A DNA stretch of 64,000 nucleotides, from NCBI GenBank assembly GCA_025453395.1, contig JALOQK010000004.1, forward strand, positions 51,563 through 115,562. The letters are read 5' to 3'. The translations under genes and the position numbers were made by a program. Of this stretch, positions 6,987-60,750 are shown in pieces. The notes beneath the pieces were generated by a model that saw only the letters and a program-made list of their open reading frames with translations, was not told where the DNA came from and did not search any database. Position 1 is the first letter of the stretch; each line of letters opens with the position of its first letter. The stretch is from Candidatus Omnitrophota bacterium. GTDB taxonomy: Bacteria; Omnitrophota; Gorgyraeia; Gygaellales; Profunditerraquicolaceae.

Positions 6987-7394
6987 CTAAAAACTTACTT
7001 CCATGGCCCGCGGCGGGCAGATCTTCACGCAAAGCTCACAAGCAATGCATTTTTTATTATCAAAGTTTACCCTGTTGTCTTTGGGGTCTTTAACCAAGGC
7101 CCCCACCGGGCAAACTGACACACACACCCCGCAATGAGTGCACTTATTCTCATCGCGCACTACATCTTGGCTTAAAGGCTGGGTCTTAACCCCGCAGGCC
7201 TTCAAATATGAGATAGCTTTATCAAAATCTTCTTTGCTTCCAACAAGCTCTAAAACCATAAGCCCCTCTTGATTGGGCATAACCGATGCCTTTAGAATAT
7301 TAAACTGCAGGTTGAATTCTTTAACAAGCTTATAAACAATCGGCTGTTCCACAAGGGTCTTAGGAAAATGCAAAACTATTTTTCGTGAAACCAT
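6987..7394 (-). CDS. NIL-domain / 2x[4Fe-4S] ferredoxin (MA1822-like partner of COG1900)
   Basis: N-terminal NIL-like domain, then CTHCGVCVSVCP and CIACELCVKICP cluster motifs. It lies immediately downstream of the COG1900 gene, as in the methanogen homocysteine pathway. Confidence 0.7.
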   Translation of the reverse strand: MVSRKIVLHFPKTLVEQPIVYKLVKEFNLQFNILKASVMPNQEGLMVLELVGSKEDFDKAISYLKACGVKTQPLSQDVVRDENKCTHCGVCVSVCPVGALVKDPKDNRVNFDNKKCIACELCVKICPPRAMEVSF

Positions 7395-7407
7395 TGATAT
7401 TCTCCTT

Positions 7408-11980: not shown

Positions 11981-12541
11981 TTAAAACTTTACCTGCGGCG
12001 CCTGGCGTTCTTGGGGATCGCCAACCTCAAAGAAATCTTTTTTGATAAAACCCCCTAATTGAGCTACTATATTCACGGGGACAGTTTGAATAAGAGTATT
12101 AAATCTTCCCGCCTCATCATTGTAATACTGCCGGGCAAAGGTAATCCGATTCTCCGTGGAAATTAATTCCTCCTGAAGCTGTAAAACATTTTGATTAGCT
12201 TTTAGATCCGGGTATCTTTCAAATACCGCAAAGAGCGAACGAAGGGTTTGGCTTAAGAAATTCTCTGAAGCTGCTTTATCCTGCAAGCCCTTAGCATCAA
12301 TTGCCTGCATGCGCGCTTTTATTACCCGCTCTAAGGTGTCTTTTTCATGCGCCATGTAGCCTTTAACCGCCTCAACTAAATTAGGGATAAGGTCATGCCT
12401 TCTTTTAAGCTGCACGTCAATTTGGCTAACCGCATTCTCAACCCTGACCCTTAAAGCGATTAAATTATTATATATACCAAAAAACCATGCCAGCGCCACA
12501 ACAACCATGCCGCCTAAAATAATAAGCACTACTAACCCCAT
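11981..12541 (-). CDS. lemA: LemA family protein
   Basis: The single N-terminal TM helix begins at MGLVVLIIL, with a GGAGG RBS 7 nt upstream. It has the LemA conserved core. The ORF-track start at 12598 lies inside an intergenic hairpin element. Confidence 0.85.
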   Translation of the reverse strand: MGLVVLIILGGMVVVALAWFFGIYNNLIALRVRVENAVSQIDVQLKRRHDLIPNLVEAVKGYMAHEKDTLERVIKARMQAIDAKGLQDKAASENFLSQTLRSLFAVFERYPDLKANQNVLQLQEELISTENRITFARQYYNDEAGRFNTLIQTVPVNIVAQLGGFIKKDFFEVGDPQERQAPQVKF

Positions 12542-19332: not shown

Positions 19333-20625
19333 TTATTTAACGCCTAAAATATCCGCCAAATCTTTTTCCGCAGTAGTAACCAGCTTCAAATTATACTTAT
19401 CTTGAAGCAATTTCAGAACATTCGCGTTTAAGAATGCCGGAGCGCTGGGGCCAATGCGGATATTTTGGATACCTAAATAAAGCAGGCTTAAAAGTATCGC
19501 TACTGCCTTTTGTTCATACCAGGAAAGCACCATTGACAATGGCAATTGGTTCACCGAACAATTAAAAGCCTTAGATAAAGCAAGCGCTACCTGCACCGCA
19601 GAATAGGCATTATTACATTGCCCGATGTCAATTAAGCGCGGAACCCCCTCAATATCACCAAAATCAAGTTTATTGAAACGATATTTCCCGCAGGCCAAAG
19701 TTAAAATTATACAATCCTTGGGAACTTTCTGCGCGAATTCTGTGTAATAGTTTCTCCCCGGCTTGGCTCCGTCGCAACCACCGACTAAGAAGAAATGTTT
19801 TATTTTCCCGGATTTAACTAATCCCACGATTTTATCTGCAAGGCCTAATATCGCGGTATGGTGAAACCCCGTTTGTATGTTTTTCCCGGCAACTTCAGGA
19901 ATACTGCCTAATTCTAATGCCTTTTTAATCACAACAGAAAAATCTTTACGTTCTACATGCTTGGCACCCGCCATACCCACGATGCCGGAAGTAAAAAGCC
20001 TATCCAGGTATGTGCCAGAAGGCGGAATCTGGATACAGTTAGTTGTAACCAAAATTGCTCCGCCAAATTCATTAAATTCTTTTTTCTGTTCTTGCCAGGC
20101 GCCTCCAAAATTCCCCACAAGATGCTTAAACTGTTTTAATTTGGGATAACCATGCGCCGGCAACATCTCGCCATGGGTATAAATATTGACCCCTTTGCCT
20201 TCGGTTTGTTTTAAAAGTTCATAAAGATCCGGCAGGTCGTGCCCCGTTATCAAAATACCCGGGCCTTTTTTAGTCCCGGTATAGACATTCGTTGGCACGG
20301 GATTACCGAAATTATCGGTATTTGCCTTATCTAATAATTCCATGGCCTTGAAATTAATTTTCCCGCATTCTAAAACTAGAGCCAGATAATCATTCAGATC
20401 GAAATTAACATTGGTTAAGGTGGTAAAAAGCGCGCGGTGCATAAAACCATCAACTTCATCGTCTTTAAAACCCATTTCTCTGGCATGATACGCGTAAGCT
20501 GCCACGCCTTTTAAGCCAAATATTAAGGTATCCTGCAAACTTTGAATATCTTCATTCTTGCCGCATACACCTTGCTTTGTGCAACCTGTTCCAAGAGCAG
20601 TTTGTTCACATTGATAACAAAACAT
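19333..20625 (-). CDS. hcp: hybrid-cluster protein / hydroxylamine reductase (short class)
   Basis: MFCYQCEQT N-terminal cubane-cluster motif and conserved hybrid-cluster ligands. Confidence 0.9.
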   Translation of the reverse strand: MFCYQCEQTALGTGCTKQGVCGKNEDIQSLQDTLIFGLKGVAAYAYHAREMGFKDDEVDGFMHRALFTTLTNVNFDLNDYLALVLECGKINFKAMELLDKANTDNFGNPVPTNVYTGTKKGPGILITGHDLPDLYELLKQTEGKGVNIYTHGEMLPAHGYPKLKQFKHLVGNFGGAWQEQKKEFNEFGGAILVTTNCIQIPPSGTYLDRLFTSGIVGMAGAKHVERKDFSVVIKKALELGSIPEVAGKNIQTGFHHTAILGLADKIVGLVKSGKIKHFFLVGGCDGAKPGRNYYTEFAQKVPKDCIILTLACGKYRFNKLDFGDIEGVPRLIDIGQCNNAYSAVQVALALSKAFNCSVNQLPLSMVLSWYEQKAVAILLSLLYLGIQNIRIGPSAPAFLNANVLKLLQDKYNLKLVTTAEKDLADILGVK

Positions 20626-28373: not shown

Positions 28374-28758
28374 CCAAAGAAATCTTCCCGGGGCCTAAAA
28401 GTATAAGTGCCACACAAATGGCGATAATAATAAAATTATATTCAAACCCGCCCTGCATCATAAAAAATCCGTTTTTAAGATGCACGGTAATTGCCGCCAC
28501 CAAGATGACAATCAATAATATGCCTGCTGACAATCTGGTAAAAAGTCCCAAGATCAAAAGCGCACCACAAATAAGTTCGCTATAACCTGCTAAATACGCC
28601 CAGAAAATTCCCGGAGTAAATCCAAGGCCGGTTAACATCTTGGCAAATTTATCCATACCCGAACCACCAAACATGCCAAAAACCTTCTGGCTGCCGTGCA
28701 AAACAAACATTATCCCCAAAGAACACCTTAATACTAAGATCGCCCAATCTTGCATGGC
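28360..28758 (-). CDS. DoxX-family membrane protein
   Basis: The start is taken at MQDWAILVL, with a GGAGG RBS upstream. The 4-TM DoxX pattern is present. The ORF-track N-terminal extension runs into a conserved non-coding element. Confidence 0.75.
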   Translation of the reverse strand, partial: AMQDWAILVLRCSLGIMFVLHGSQKVFGMFGGSGMDKFAKMLTGLGFTPGIFWAYLAGYSELICGALLILGLFTRLSAGILLIVILVAAITVHLKNGFFMMQGGFEYNFIIIAICVALILLGPGKISLGDKF

Positions 28759-28838
28759 ATACCTCCTTCGCAGTAGCGAACACCGGCGCAATTTGCCGCA
28801 ATTGCGGCATACTTTGCCTTCCGATAGGCAAAGGTACA
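28759..28838 (-). repeat. conserved intercistronic dual-hairpin element, copy 1 (GTACCTTTGCC-TATCGGAA-GGCAAAGTA + GCCGCAATTGCGGC + GGTGTTCGCTACTGCGAAGGAGG)
   Basis: Its sequence and architecture (two hairpins, GGTGTTC tract, RBS) are shared with the copy at 38041-38131. It lies between the NDH-2-like stop and the doxX start. Confidence 0.55.
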
Positions 28839-29969
28839 TTATTGCCGGCTATTTAATATTAAACTTCTAAAAACCGAAAGCTTATTCCCCCACCCTACTG
28901 TGCGCCATAAGCATAAAAGGTAATGCAGGAAAATCGCTTTCCTGCCTTTTACCTTTCGCCCTAATACTATACCACAAGCAAAATTATTTGCCATGGGAAT
29001 AATATAGCCCCAATCGCGCGGCTTAAAGACAGCCTTGGGTTTATTTTCTAAGGACCGCGCAATATTAAGCGCTACGGTATGGCCTTGGGCAATGGCAAAT
29101 TGCACGGCCATGCGCAAGAAACTCTTGCCTTGGCTAAAACAAGCGCTGTCTCCAGCGGCAAAACACCCCTCTCTAAATTCTAAATAATTATCCACCATGA
29201 TTCTTCCTTGAGGATTTTTAGGAATATTCAAGGTTTGGAGATACTGTGGAGTTTTTACTCCAGCTGCCCAAATAAGCAATGACTCTTTTAAAATAGTTTT
29301 ATCAGATAAAACTAAATCCTCCCCCTCTATATTCTCAATAAAAACCCCGCAGCGTATTTCAATACTCATAATTTTTAAATTACTCGCCACATAGTCTTTC
29401 ATCCACTCTGGCAAAGGGCCTAAAATAGAACTGGCGCGCTCTAAAATAATGACGGGCTTGGATATTTTTCGCTTTTGAAGATGCAGTTTTAAATTAGTTG
29501 CTACCTCTATTCCTGTGTAACCGGCCCCAGAAATAACAAAATTCTGGAAATCCTGGGCCCAAAGGCCATCAAGGATTTTTTGCGCGTCTGCAGGAGAATC
29601 TAACTTATAGGCATAATCCCTAATCTTGTTATTGCCATAAAAGTTTGTTTCTGTGCCAGTTGCAATTACCAAATAATCATAGTTCAAATTTATATGCGCG
29701 CAATGCGCAATTTTATTTTCCAGATCTAAACTTATTACTTCCTCTTGAATAAACTGACAACCGTATTTCTTAGCCAACGACCCTATAGGAAAATAAAGTT
29801 TGCTAGTTAAGATGCCCCTTCCGATACAATCCGGCATTAAGGGCAAACAATTAAAGCTGCCCCCCTTATCGATAATTGTTACGCTTATTTTATCCCGAAA
29901 AGAAGAAAGCCGCCATGCGGTAACTGCGCCGGCATACCCACAACCGATAATAACTACTTTTTTCTTCAT
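28839..29969 (-). CDS. FAD-dependent pyridine-nucleotide-disulfide oxidoreductase (NDH-2 / sulfide:quinone oxidoreductase-like)
   Basis: GCGYAG Rossmann motif and a second nucleotide-binding GAGYTG motif. Confidence 0.65.
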   Translation of the reverse strand: MKKKVVIIGCGYAGAVTAWRLSSFRDKISVTIIDKGGSFNCLPLMPDCIGRGILTSKLYFPIGSLAKKYGCQFIQEEVISLDLENKIAHCAHINLNYDYLVIATGTETNFYGNNKIRDYAYKLDSPADAQKILDGLWAQDFQNFVISGAGYTGIEVATNLKLHLQKRKISKPVIILERASSILGPLPEWMKDYVASNLKIMSIEIRCGVFIENIEGEDLVLSDKTILKESLLIWAAGVKTPQYLQTLNIPKNPQGRIMVDNYLEFREGCFAAGDSACFSQGKSFLRMAVQFAIAQGHTVALNIARSLENKPKAVFKPRDWGYIIPMANNFACGIVLGRKVKGRKAIFLHYLLCLWRTVGWGNKLSVFRSLILNSRQ

Positions 29970-37977: not shown

Positions 37978-38058
37978 TTATCCCAAACAAGGTTTTCTGC
38001 CTTTATTGGCTTTCTTAGAACGCCAGTTTAATTTACCTCTACGTTTACGTTTTCCCAT
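37978..38058 (-). CDS. candidate 26-aa highly basic peptide ([26 protein letters not shown]). Its stop lies 4 nt before the trpB2 ATG
   Basis: ATG preceded by GAAAGGGG, which aligns with the RBS of the doxX leader copy. A 32-aa alternative starts at 38073. It was not in the ORF track (below 60 aa). Confidence 0.25.
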
Positions 38059-38131
38059 ATCTGCCCCTTTCATAGTAATGAACACCGCCCCAGAAAGGGG
38101 CGTACTTTGCCTTCCAATAGGCAAAGGTACG
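38041..38131 (-). repeat. conserved intercistronic dual-hairpin element, copy 2 (GTACCTTTGCC-TATTGGAA-GGCAAAGTAC + GCCCCTTTCTGGGGC + GGTGTTCATTACTATGAAAGGGG)
   Basis: Near-identical hairpin, including the loop, and the GGTGTTCRYTACTRYGAARGGRG tract are shared with 28759-28838. Confidence 0.55.
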
Positions 38132-42556: not shown

Positions 42557-42598
42557 CAGCTATCAGCTTTCAGCTATCAGCTATCAGCTTTCAGCGCA
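42557..42598. repeat. tandem heptamer repeat (TCAGCTW)x6, ending 4 nt before the lpxL start
   Basis: Seen directly: TCAGCTA TCAGCTT TCAGCTA TCAGCTA TCAGCTT TCAGCGC. Confidence 0.8.
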
Positions 42599-42624
42599 TG
42601 GCGCCGTAAACTGTTAACTGTAAA

Positions 42625-43107
42625 CTATAACTTATATCCTATTTTTCTTAAGAGGTCTTTTCGTGATTGTTTTTCCTCTTTTGTTTCCACGCCTTTAGGC
42701 GGCAATCCGTCAATAACTCCTAAAATACCTCTGCCGGAATCTGTTTGGGCGAGAATAACCTCTATCGGGTTAGCGCTGGCGCAATAGATATTACAGACTT
42801 CCGGAACCATTTTAATCGCGTTTAAGACATTAACCGGATACGCGGCTTTTAAGAAAACAATAAAAACATGCCCGCAGGAAACAGCTAAAAGATTATCTTC
42901 TGCAAGCTTCAGAAGCTCTCTGTCATTGCCCTCAAGGCGGATCTTACAAACTCCCGAGGCTTCAGAAAAACCTACAGCAAACTTTACTAACGGGACACTA
43001 TTAACAATTGCCTCATAGATGTCTTCGGCTGTCTTAATGAAATGGCTCTGGCCGATAATTACATTCAAATCATCGGATTTCTTTATCTTTACGGTAACAA
43101 TTTCCAT
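42625..43107 (-). CDS. conserved hypothetical protein (possibly adenosine-specific kinase family, PF04008-like)
   Basis: 160 aa. The assignment rests on remembered family resemblance (..NIYCASANPIEV..GRGILGVIDG..) and is uncertain. Confidence 0.4.
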   Translation of the reverse strand: MEIVTVKIKKSDDLNVIIGQSHFIKTAEDIYEAIVNSVPLVKFAVGFSEASGVCKIRLEGNDRELLKLAEDNLLAVSCGHVFIVFLKAAYPVNVLNAIKMVPEVCNIYCASANPIEVILAQTDSGRGILGVIDGLPPKGVETKEEKQSRKDLLRKIGYKL

Positions 43108-43157
43108 CTTATTCGCCCCCCTATTTTAGGCTACATATTAACATAAGAATGACAGCA

Positions 43158-43316
43158 AATCAATCACCAAACACCAAATTACCTGCCTACCGGCAGGCAG
43201 GCAAACACCAAATAATACCCAATAATCAATAACCAATTAACCAAACAGATTCGGGTATTGGTAATTGGTATTTGGTTATTATTTGGTTATTGTAAACTTG
43301 ATTATTGGTTATTAAA
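43158..43316. promoter_or_regulatory. long imperfect inverted repeat built from ACCAAA(T) / (A)TTTGGTTATT direct repeats, plus a CCTGCC-TACC-GGCAGG hairpin, in the divergent region upstream of the CDF gene
   Basis: Seen directly. TTGGTTATT occurs three times on the right arm, and its complement motifs occur on the left arm. Confidence 0.5.
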
Positions 43317-43319
43317 AAG

Positions 43320-43356
43320 TTGTTACTACCCATAAAATATTGTATAATAATTTTAT
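43320..43356 (+). promoter_or_regulatory. sigma70-like promoter (TTGTTA-17 bp-TGTATAAT) overlapped by the perfect palindrome CCATAAAAT-ATTGTATAATA-ATTTTATGG. The predicted TSS is at or near the ATG at 43355, so the mRNA may be leaderless
   Basis: Seen directly. The palindrome spans 43328-43356 and covers the -10 box and the start codon. Confidence 0.45.
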
Positions 43357-45696: not shown

Positions 45697-45711
45697 ATCA
45701 TTACCTCGTTT

Positions 45712-45746
45712 TCAGCTATCAGCTGTCAGCCTTCAGCTATCAGCTA
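45712..45746. repeat. tandem heptamer repeat TCAGCTA TCAGCTG TCAGCCT TCAGCTA TCAGCTA between the secA stop and the lnt RBS
   Basis: Seen directly. It is almost identical to the copy at 59416-59450. Confidence 0.8.
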
Positions 45747-59396: not shown

Positions 59397-59415
59397 CTCT
59401 TTCCCCTTTCATTTT

Positions 59416-59450
59416 ATCAGCTTTCAGCTGTCAGCCTTCAGCTATCAGCT
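59416..59450. repeat. tandem heptamer repeat TCAGCTT TCAGCTG TCAGCCT TCAGCTA TCAGCTA between the paaK stop and the ACT-protein RBS
   Basis: Seen directly. Confidence 0.8.
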
Positions 59451-60750
59451 AAAGAATTCTTTTATCTATAACTCTTTTGGCTTTTCCTTCGCTTCGCTCA
59501 AGGACCTTAGGCTCAACAAGCTTAACTTTCACAAAAACACCAAGCACGGATTCAATTTCTTTCTTAATCTTGTCGGAAAGCGCGCTCAAACTCTTCATTT
59601 CATCAGAAAAGAATTTATCTTCCACTTCCACCAAAACTTCCAGCTCATCCATGTCGCCGACTTTTCGATCTACCACAAGCTGATAATGCGGTTTAGTCCC
59701 TTCAATGCCCAGAAGAACGTGCTCAATCTGCGACGGGAAGACATTGATCCCGCGCACAATGATCATATCATCTGTGCGGCCTTTGATCTTGCTTATGCGC
59801 GGGGATGTCCTCCCGCAACGGCATTTTTCATACTTTATAGAAACAATATCCCGCGTGCGATAACGCAATAAAGGAAGCCCTTCTTTGATAAGCGTAGTAA
59901 TAACTAATTCCCCGAATTCACCTTCTTTTACCTCTTTGCCGGTTTTGGGGTTTATTATTTCGGGATAAAAAACATCCGAAAAAATATGTAAACCCTTTTT
60001 ATGCTGGCATTCCTGGGCCACTCCCGGCCCGATGACTTCAGATAAGCCGTAAACATCCGTAGCAAGAATATTCCATGTTTTTTCTATTTCGCCTCTCATG
60101 GTCTCGCTCCACGGCTCTGCCCCAAAGACCCCCACTTCCCAACTGCTTTCTTTAGGGTTTAATCCCATTTCCCGGGCTTCTTCTGACATATACAAACAAT
60201 AACTGGGCGTGCAGGCTAAAATCCTGGGCTTAAAATCATTCATGATCTTTAACTGCCTTTTGGTTTGCCCCGATGAAGCAGGGATTACCGTTAACCCCAT
60301 CTCAAGAGCCCCATAATGAAAACCTAATCCTCCGGTAAACAAACCATAGCCATAGGCAATCTGGATAATGTCCCCCGGAACAGCTCCAGCGCAGCCTAAG
60401 ACGCGCGCCATCACTTCTGACCAAAGCCCTAAATCTTCTTTGGTGTAACCAACTACCGTGGGATTGCCGGTCGTCCCGCTTGAGACATGGATCTCGGCTA
60501 TGTCTTTAAGAGGGCTTGAAAAAAGATTGAAAGGGTAACTATCGCGCATGTCTTCTTTGGTGGTAAAAGGAATCTTTTTCAAATCACGCAAATCCTGTAT
60601 ATCCGAAGGGCGCACTCCAGCTGCTTCTAATTTCTTGCGGTAGAGTTTGTTATTATCCCAGATATACTGCACTTTTTTGCGCAAGCGTTCAGACTGCAGA
60701 ATTTGCATTTCTCCAGCAGACATACATTCCATATTCTCATTCCAAATCAT
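59449..60750 (-). CDS. paaK: phenylacetate--CoA ligase family, second paralog
   Basis: SSGTTGNPT and YGLSE motifs. The start is taken at MIWNENMECMS, abutting the iorB stop. Confidence 0.85.
   Translation of the reverse strand: MIWNENMECMSAGEMQILQSERLRKKVQYIWDNNKLYRKKLEAAGVRPSDIQDLRDLKKIPFTTKEDMRDSYPFNLFSSPLKDIAEIHVSSGTTGNPTVVGYTKEDLGLWSEVMARVLGCAGAVPGDIIQIAYGYGLFTGGLGFHYGALEMGLTVIPASSGQTKRQLKIMNDFKPRILACTPSYCLYMSEEAREMGLNPKESSWEVGVFGAEPWSETMRGEIEKTWNILATDVYGLSEVIGPGVAQECQHKKGLHIFSDVFYPEIINPKTGKEVKEGEFGELVITTLIKEGLPLLRYRTRDIVSIKYEKCRCGRTSPRISKIKGRTDDMIIVRGINVFPSQIEHVLLGIEGTKPHYQLVVDRKVGDMDELEVLVEVEDKFFSDEMKSLSALSDKIKKEIESVLGVFVKVKLVEPKVLERSEGKAKRVIDKRIL

Follow-up and report, generated by a model that had tools for sequence, protein, structure and literature searches.

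Nested two-hairpin repeats beside Shine-Dalgarno sequences in Candidatus Omnitrophota: probable insertions of a small palindromic element

Results

Three copies of a two-hairpin element in one contig

The stretch of DNA analysed here (the window) comprises 64,000 nucleotides (nt) of a Candidatus Omnitrophota genome (assembly GCA_025453395.1, contig JALOQK010000004.1, positions 51,563 to 115,562) and carries three copies of an intercistronic two-hairpin element, all of which are sense-oriented, lie within operons and end 0-1 nt before a Shine-Dalgarno (SD) sequence. Copy 1, our main subject, separates an NDH-2-like gene from DoxX at the head of a DoxX-cupin-ZIP-FeoA/B gene group; copy 2 is found between the stop codon of a CsgG-like gene and the SD of a conserved open reading frame (ORF) of 26 amino acids (aa), and copy 3 upstream of LemA and an M48 zinc peptidase. 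The names DoxX, cupin, ZIP, FeoA/B and M48, assigned in a preliminary description made from the sequence alone, were confirmed by Pfam. Coordinates are window positions throughout and all copies are described as read on the minus strand; L-numbers denote loci or contigs outside the window that were used for comparison.

Copy 1 is a composite of about 87 nt (28769..28856) in which an intact inner (guest) unit sits inside a decayed outer (host) unit. The big hairpin of the guest (28837-28809), GTACC-TTTGCC-TATCGGAA-GGCAAA-GTAT, has a GTAC foot, a bulged C and a TTTGCC/GGCAAA stem, its arms GTACCTTTGCC (5') and GGCAAAGTAT (3') flanking the loop TATCGGAA; it scores 40.0 bits with CM R1, a covariance model built from aligned hairpins, agrees with the predicted fold and matches the inner hairpin of L012/L039/L044 at 29/29 nt. 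The small GC hairpin of the guest, GCCGCAATTGCGGC (GCCGC-AATT-GCGGC, 28808-28795), is followed by AAATTGC and then by GCCGGTGT (28787-28780), the 3' arm and foot of the outer host stem, which may be compared with GGCCGGTGT in L012, L003 and L045. The 5' arm of the same stem, GCCGGC (28849-28844), lies within the last NDH-2 codons, is homologous to the host arm CACCCGGCC of L012 and L003 and pairs in the centroid fold with 28787-28782. Next comes the small hairpin of the host, TTCGC-TACT-GCGAA (28780-28767), with a counterpart TTCGC-CTACT-GCGAA in L012/L039, and the host part as a whole aligns with the composites of L012 and L003 (GCCGGTGTT-CGC-TACTGCGAAG versus GCCGGTGTTTCGCCTACTGCGAAG). At its upstream end the block supplies the stop codon TAA of the NDH-2-like gene (28841-28839), with TG left between this stop and the big hairpin. 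At its downstream end the host hairpin gives way to GGAGG-TATGCC-ATG, that is, to an ancestral SD outside the element (AAGGAGG, 28768-28762), a spacer of about 5-6 nt and the DoxX start codon (ATG, 28755-28753).

Copy 2 (38130-38069; 40.6 bits with CM R1) repeats this anatomy. Its guest big hairpin (38130-38102) is 27/29 identical to that of copy 1, the differences being one loop base (C/T) and the last base, and is followed by the guest small hairpin GCCCCTTTCTGGGGC (GCCCC-TTTCT-GGGGC, 38101-38087), a host remnant GGTGT (38086-38082), the host small hairpin TTCAT-TACT-ATGAA (38082-38069), AAGGGG (SD AAAGGGG) and an ATG at 38058. From the host anatomy of copies 1 and 2 it follows that the GGTGTTC-RYTACTRY-GAA tract, singled out in the preliminary description for its conservation, consists of the 3' foot and the small hairpin that belong to an outer, partly decayed host unit. 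The RYTACTRY part is itself a hairpin whose two inner pairs are GC/GC in copy 1 and AT/AT in copy 2, a double compensatory change. Copy 3 (12596-12555; 36.0 bits with CM R1) is a single, un-nested and diverged unit, GTGCC-TTGGCA-TAAATGAG-TGCCAA-GTAC (big hairpin, 12596-12568) plus GCCCTTGCTGGGC (small hairpin GCCC-TTGCT-GGGC), and adjoins the LemA SD GAAGGAGG (12554-12547; ATG at 12541). It differs from copies 1 and 2 by two compensatory stem pairs (TTTGCC/GGCAAA to TTGGCA/TGCCAA) and by its loop, and its stem type recurs in L003, L013, L019, L043 and others.

The likeness between these loci had been noted before, and it is far beyond chance: in the window both the 23-nt hairpin core and the GGTGTTC..GAARGRG tract are matched twice where 0.00 matches are expected, with the third locus diverged. 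Each of the three big hairpins is followed by a small GC hairpin, as had been claimed for copies 1 and 2, and none of them by a U-tract or T-run, which bears out the earlier view that we are not looking at generic terminators. A covariance-model search, proposed at the time as a check, returned the three window copies together with 56 matches in 218 kb of related loci; run over the whole window with filters off, CM R1 gave exactly three strong matches (36-40.6 bits). A marginal one at 20255-20282 on the plus strand (16.9 bits), inside a coding sequence and with no small hairpin after it, was judged to be due to chance. A descriptor allowing one mismatch yielded only noise when further diverged copies were sought in the window, and an additional 17 kb of the source contig beyond the window had no more units, which makes 3 loci in the 81 kb of the contig that were covered.

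Fold z-scores set copy 2 (-3.1 to -3.6) apart from copy 1 (-2.1) and copy 3 (-0.7 to -1.2). In the minimum free energy (MFE) fold of copy 2, the small hairpin's 5' arm together with its loop (GCCCCUUUC) is predicted to pair with GAAAGGGGC (both within 38064-38101), and the resulting 9-bp helix would compete with the small hairpin and take up the SD of the 26-aa ORF. This SD-masking structure may be accidental.

A separate observation concerns Logan contig L051 (SRR12684589_179772), an independent assembly of the same genome, which stops at window position 28807, exactly where the copy 1 big hairpin has its 3' end. We do not count this contig end as evidence of repetition, since a palindrome by itself is enough to interrupt a de Bruijn assembly.

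Filled and empty orthologous sites

Relatives of the source genome tell us what the NDH-2/DoxX junction looks like without copy 1. L055, L056, L057 and L060 retain the order polyprenyl synthase-UbiA-NDH2-DoxX, and in each of them NDH-2 and DoxX adjoin or overlap one another with no element in between, the spacing being +1 (L055), -4 (L056), -1 (L057) and +2 nt (L060). In these relatives the final NDH-2 codons double as the DoxX SD, as in L055 with TCT TTA ATA AAA GGA GGT TAA T ATG (..SLIKGG*), where AAGGAGGTTAATATG, and its equivalents in L056, L057 and L060, marks the element-free junction. The window junction reads AGT TTA ATA, followed by the block of about 87 nt and then by AAGGAGGTATGCCATG; with the block taken out it would read ..AAAGGAGGTTAATATG. 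The window NDH-2 is no longer than its homologues and differs only in its last residues, ..SLI-LNSRQ* in place of ..SLI-KGG*, with its stop codon inside the block. Since the relatives' junctions are element-free and keep the SD in the NDH-2 tail, we regard the copy 1 block as an insertion just 5' of the ancestral SD, with edges that can be placed to within a few nt, given an NDH-2 identity to the relatives of just 49-55% (next-best homologue, 55%). The sequence comparison shows that the composite of outer and inner unit was inserted into an ancestrally overlapping, translationally coupled NDH-2/DoxX pair, where it replaced the last three NDH-2 codons and moved the ancestral DoxX SD and ATG 84 nt downstream. 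The preliminary description had the conserved tract supply the ribosome-binding site (RBS) of the downstream gene. This does not hold, as AAGGAGGT-N5-ATG is ancestral and lies within the last NDH-2 codons (..KGG*) in the relatives, the element having entered 5' of it.

The ATG in TAATG (28839-28837), which overlaps the NDH-2 stop, opens a frame that runs through the 84-nt insert into DoxX without meeting a stop (28753-28839, minus strand), and this allows for a possible 28-aa N-terminal extension of DoxX, MYLCLSEGKVCRNCGKLRRCSLLRRRYA-MQDW...; the probability of such an open frame by chance is about 9%. DoxX homologues measure 131 aa, and this fits the internal ATG at 28755.

For copy 2, too, there are empty sites: L060 has a 22-nt spacer (including AAGGAGG) from the CsgG-like stop to the 26-aa ORF and in L059 both ORFs overlap, whereas in the window about 62 nt of element keep them apart. 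No unit was found by CM R1 over 110 kb of the empty-site relatives. For copy 3 the relatives have other genes upstream of LemA and hence no orthologous junction; the LemA leader of L063 contains reverse-oriented nested units and that of L062 none. The 26-aa ORF itself (37978-38058, minus strand), between copy 2 and a TrpB-like gene, encodes a very basic, conserved and unannotated peptide and stops 4 nt before the TrpB ATG. A near-same 26-aa peptide follows the CsgG-like gene in L059 and L060 (TrpB 76-77% identical), where it is uncalled in the records, and the peptide has no Pfam or NCBIfam match.

The repeat unit defines a family

Outside the window the same unit recurs with a constant build. 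It measures 42-45 nt and consists of a 10-bp big hairpin plus a GC hairpin of 4-5 bp. The big hairpin comprises a paired foot R-Y-A-C/G-T-R-Y, a bulged C, 6 variable covarying pairs and an 8-nt loop TAWNKGAW (TATCGGAT, TAAAGGAT and TAAATGAT among others), and the small hairpins have loops of TTNCT type (TTTCT, TTCT, TTGT, TTACT). A descriptor that specified geometry only (foot, bulged C, 6-bp stem, 8-nt loop and then a small hairpin) and imposed no sequence picked up 60 instances in 262 kb, where shuffled sequence yielded 3.8, and these instances have loop, foot and small-loop sequences in common that the descriptor did not ask for. When 34 distinct big hairpins, of 37 found, were aligned, about 17 stem variants emerged and 9/10 pairs varied on both sides. 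The 100% pairing in this alignment is circular because the descriptor required it, but the diversity of pair types is not. G-U pairs are scarce (9/340 cells, 6 of those at the terminal pair), which fits a constraint for complementarity on both DNA strands. Loops are less uniform than copies 1 and 2 would suggest, with GGA present in 23/37 distinct loops and absent in 14/37 (38%), including the copy 3 loop TAAATGAG. The copies thus are a real family of dispersed units in some Candidatus Omnitrophota genomes, and the earlier view of a module defined by sequence and structure is supported.

Scans of genome and metagenome collections with a degenerate big-hairpin pattern retrieved 8 Omnitrophota-type contigs from metagenome-assembled genomes (MAGs) and 25 freshwater or sediment metagenome contigs, three of these 8 + 25 being labelled Planctomycetales and one 'bacterium'. 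Matches in Collinsella (8 + 8 loci) have non-complementary arms (TTGGCA / GGCCAA) and were discarded as a coding-sequence coincidence, and a scan of viral contigs gave 0 matches. Rfam 15 had 0 matches in the window at the gathering threshold and, for 28600-29000 at E up to 10, none overlapping the element; the single match among 10 unit-bearing loci was a neighbouring fluoride riboswitch. Our literature search found no published description of such repeats in Omnitrophota.

Nesting, tandem arrays and gene context

Units of the family also sit inside one another. Guests occur within complete host units, recognisable by their own foot, bulged C, stem and small hairpin, in L003, L004, L008, L010, L012, L018, L020, L022, L037 and L039, with the 8-nt loop of the host split near its centre (TATC^GGAT, TAAAG^GAT, TATA^GGAT). 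Three levels of nesting are reached in L012/L039, and in L011 and L021 a reverse-oriented guest occupies the small-hairpin loop. Both states can be seen side by side in the leader of the L012 HU/IHF gene, where the host hairpin CACCCGGCC-TTATCGGAT-CGGCCGGTG is present once empty and, 17 nt on, once filled with two nested guests. L012 and L039, 99.8% identical, differ by exactly one 47-nt tandem unit. Units are absent from orthologous sites in distant relatives and polymorphic in tandem number between near-identical contigs.

By crude ORF calls, the units are sense versus antisense to neighbouring genes at about 2:1, and these genes are unrelated to each other (HU/IHF, PyrR, ferredoxin, transporters, lipoproteins). 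Many copies elsewhere have a sigma70-like promoter on one side and an SD on the other (for instance L010, L012, L045 and L040), and copies ending directly at an SD include 1, 2 and 3 as well as those of L010, L012, L040 and L045. GA is found within 4 nt of the 3' end in 22/46 distinct units against a background of 17%; much of this GA/GGA flank signal comes from nesting in TATC^GGAT loops, and compact genomes offer few other tolerated sites. MAG contigs that end inside units (L004, L013, L020, L022, L064) suggest many copies in those genomes.

Further repeats were seen along the way. L010 (5100-5230) has a second unit type, G[CT]CCCTTCC-TTAAAAGGTAT-AGGAAGGG[GA]C + TACCCCTNTGGGGT, which is self-nested and shares a leader with GTACC-type units; nesting is common to more than one hairpin family. 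In L031 (140-460 and 5770-6010) a composite of about 250-300 nt, made of nested units and a shared leader (GGGTTTTGTTTTGGAGTAAAATAAA..ATG, minus strand), precedes two different genes that lie 5.4 kb from each other and has an extra inserted unit in one copy. A module of about 190 nt lies beside different genes in sediment metagenomes (L019 at 7150-7400, also L023, L025, L026, L030, L032, L036 and L048). It comprises a sigma70-like TTGATA-N17-TATAAT on the strand opposite the unit, bracketed by CCTCTCTAAA/TTCAGAGAGG, and then a hairpin GGTTTCCCCTCGG..[unit]..GAGAGGGACCC, and could represent a mobile cassette of promoter and leader; a fluoride riboswitch (RF01734, 45.3 bits, 7305-7379) follows it in L019.

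The window also has repeats of other kinds. Tandem heptamers AGCTGAW, 5-6 units each, occupy three short intercistronic spacers (42560-42604, 45709-45746 and 59414-59451, minus strand), each directly upstream of an RBS, and represent a second, unrelated repeat family on the contig; they resemble the intergenic TAACTGA heptamer repeats of Beggiatoaceae described in excerpts of PMC4679880. In the divergent intergenic region 43107-43340 there is an imperfect inverted repeat, long and rich in AT (AACCAAATAATAACCAAATACCAATTACC.../...GGTTAATTGGTTATTGATTATTGGGTATTATTTGG), besides the GC hairpin CCTGCCTGCCGGTAGGCAGG.

Discussion

Our comparison of filled with empty orthologous sites at copies 1 and 2 leads us to an insertion of the kind known from repetitive extragenic palindromes (REPs) or from the small dispersed repeats (SDRs) of cyanobacteria, rather than to a conserved metal leader, and to an RBS that is ancestral. 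The element is a dispersed, nested and orientation-independent insertion that leaves the SD in place. We consider it likely, at a probability of roughly three in four, that copy 1 and its siblings go back to a small, non-autonomous, self-nesting palindromic repeat. Among the options raised in the preliminary description, which included a REP-like or MITE-like element (MITE, miniature inverted-repeat transposable element), an mRNA-stabilising or processing element and a cis-regulatory leader, the REP/MITE-like one is favoured by the evidence. That description also held that hundreds of copies per genome, placed without regard to gene context, would speak for a plain selfish repeat. Such numbers are not seen here, with just the three loci in 81 kb.

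As to mechanism, units would multiply at the level of DNA and land in the loop centre of existing units, in a small-hairpin loop or a few non-coding bases 5' of an SD, and they would expand or contract as tandem copies. Mobilisation may be envisaged through an enzyme that acts in trans on the single strand in its folded form, such as a transposase of HUH/Y1 type as for REPs; the units may prefer hairpin loops and bases 5' of an SD, or these may simply be the only sites tolerated. Once inserted at copy 1, the block would be co-transcribed and fold into three hairpins with the SD left free. Its effect on expression would be neutral to modest, through loss of translational coupling between NDH-2 and DoxX together with a role for the hairpins as barrier, stabiliser or insulator.

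Several of our observations sit less well with such an origin. No HxH-type motif (a crude stand-in for HUH) turned up in 152 ORFs of unit-bearing loci, and an approximate IS608 TnpA query, a weak probe, had no tblastn match in about 350 kb. Target-site duplications are not visible at the junctions of copy 1 or copy 2, the copy number on the source contig is low, unlike classical REPs, and the nearest relatives are distant enough (49-55% NDH-2 identity) to leave the insertion undatable. Neighbouring units have different, covarying stems but the same loop and foot, which is also what one would expect if a functional structure in RNA or DNA were under selection. Finally, nearly all top-level copies adjoin an SD or sit in a 5' untranslated region, which could reflect function and not tolerance.

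One alternative is an exapted RNA element, in which transcribed hairpins would protect the flanking mRNA from exonucleases or RNase E/J, shield the translation-initiation region that follows or, in copy 2, mask the SD. We see this as a possibility of limited weight, and it is compatible with the insertion origin that we prefer. In its favour, the window copies are all in sense, inside operons and next to an SD, many others stand between promoter and SD (L010, L012, L045, L040), folds are stable (copy 2 in particular, given its z-score and the MFE pairing of GCCCCUUUC with the SD-bearing GAAAGGGGC), and REPs have been reported to act as RNA elements (excerpts of PMC3733652). Yet orthologous junctions of the relatives function without the element, about 1/3 of units are antisense to the neighbouring gene, and the fold z-scores of copies 1 and 3 are unremarkable. 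Rather less probable, to our judgement, is a self-targeting mini-element with a preference for the site just 5' of GGA/GA, as found in its own TATC^GGAT loops and in SDs, which would be moved by an unrecognised mechanism and kept by Omnitrophota as leader modules that can be stacked to adjust mRNA stability or translation within very compact operons. Selection for tolerated sites in compact genomes explains the SD/GA adjacency equally well.

The constancy of the loop and of the RBS-proximal tract had suggested, in the preliminary description, a sequence-specific structured RNA or a protein-binding module, and one candidate regulator deserves mention. CsrA sites carry GGA in a hairpin loop and have the SELEX consensus RUACARGGAUGU. 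With loops such as TATCGGAA, TATTGGAA, TAAAGGAT and TATAGGAT the unit does present (A)NGGA in an 8-nt loop and a second GGA in the adjoining SD, and with 3-4 such hairpins per leader in L012, L039 and L045 the arrays might be taken for multi-site leaders or sponges of a CsrA/RsmA-type regulator. Copies 1 and 2 fit the expectation for a CsrA/RsmA target (GGA in the loop and near the SD, sense strand) and copy 3, with TAAATGAG, does not. As 14/37 distinct loops lack GGA, as both orientations occur and a reverse-oriented unit would expose AUCCNAUA in its loop, as the element is missing at orthologous sites and no csrA is seen in the roughly 350 kb searched (a weak test), we find CsrA/RsmA control improbable and do not read loop conservation as the mark of a specific RNA ligand. 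An operon-specific cis-regulatory leader or riboswitch-like metal sensor seems more improbable still. This idea drew on ZIP, FeoA/B and the M48 zinc peptidase among the downstream genes of the window, and on the conservation of loop and RBS-proximal tract between copies 1 and 2. It is, however, already largely refuted: the four relatives' NDH-2/DoxX junctions, and relatives with CsgG-smallORF-TrpB synteny, have no element, the genes directly downstream are DoxX, the 26-aa ORF (then the TrpB-like gene) and LemA in the window and unrelated ones such as HU/IHF, PyrR and ferredoxin elsewhere, Rfam offers no match, and the unit has neither a junction of several helices nor a conserved internal loop in which a ligand might be bound. 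We give the least credit of all to an intrinsic terminator or attenuator between cistrons, for even if GC-rich hairpins do follow stop codons, there is no U-tract and the next gene has its SD and start codon within 0-20 nt.

How does the insertion that we favour relate to repeats already known? Like REPs, bacterial interspersed mosaic elements (BIMEs) and REPINs, which are mobilised by REP-associated tyrosine transposases (RAYTs; PMC3733652, PMC2817692, PMC3116915), the units are short imperfect palindromes (about 30-45 nt) that are extragenic, intra-operonic and transcribed, come singly, in clusters or as composites, have a conserved tetranucleotide at the hairpin base and few G-U pairs, and break assemblies. 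The big hairpin, at 29 nt and 10 bp, falls within the 20-40 bp of an imperfect stem-loop palindrome by which REPs are defined. REPs, however, carry a tag at one end, GTAG or CGTC, that is left unpaired (excerpts of PMC3733652), where the 5' tetranucleotide of our unit, G/A-T/C-A-C, is paired with the 3' G-T-R-Y and is neither GTAG nor CGTC, and they exceed 100 copies per genome (excerpts of PMC2817692), where 81 kb of the source contig hold three loci and contig ends in other MAGs hint at many copies. Further differences are that our units have two hairpins, the stems of which differ and covary while the loop is kept, that they are arranged head-to-tail in tandem where REPs alternate, that they nest inside loops, and that they typically lie just 5' of an SD where REPs lie downstream of genes. 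A cognate RAYT gene, a Y1/HUH transposase, is usually flanked by REPs; our weak probes revealed no RAYT in about 350 kb. The units are not MITEs, which typically measure 100-400 bp and have terminal inverted repeats matching an insertion sequence as well as flanking target-site duplications: ours are 42-45 nt long, their sole inverted repeat is the hairpin itself, and no direct duplication is seen at the junctions of copies 1 and 2.

In behaviour the units resemble the SDRs of Nostocaceae, which are reportedly about 21-27 nt long, have family-specific consensus sequences and insert into their own copies and into or onto hairpins, which they extend; SDRs would thus share with our units a very small size, self-nesting and the lack of a known transposase, but they belong to another phylum and are shorter than our two-hairpin units of 42-45 nt. 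IS1397/ISKpn1 and IS110-family elements are said to target REP loops and so resemble our guests in inserting specifically into the loop of a palindromic repeat, yet they are full insertion sequences encoding a transposase while the guest here is another unit of about 45 nt. The hairpins of CsrA/RsmA targets and the CsrB/RsmZ arrays, too, show GGA both in a hairpin loop and again in the SD as well as, in some leaders, hairpins in tandem, and differ from ours by the 38% of distinct loops without GGA, by the two orientations, by the insertion behaviour and by the absence of a linked CsrA. In sum, the units are best filed among small palindromic mobile repeats, as a new variant and not as REPs sensu stricto.

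What follows for the organism is in part the removal of a false lead, as copy 1 is no new metal-sensing leader and does not provide the RBS. In its place we have a clean example of a tiny repeat that splits a translationally coupled gene pair and rewrites the C-terminus of a protein. Nesting, covarying copies and SD-adjacent insertions are unusual. The local effect is probably small. For Omnitrophota, a candidate phylum known mostly from MAGs, our findings document a two-hairpin repeat family that nests in its own loops, and such repeats matter in practice since they interrupt assemblies, give rise to spurious ORFs and N-terminal extensions and can pass for regulatory RNAs; the description of the unit together with the covariance-model approach makes them recognisable. 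If targeting directed by the SD or by hairpin loops were true, this would imply an unusual insertion specificity and an enzyme that has so far escaped recognition.

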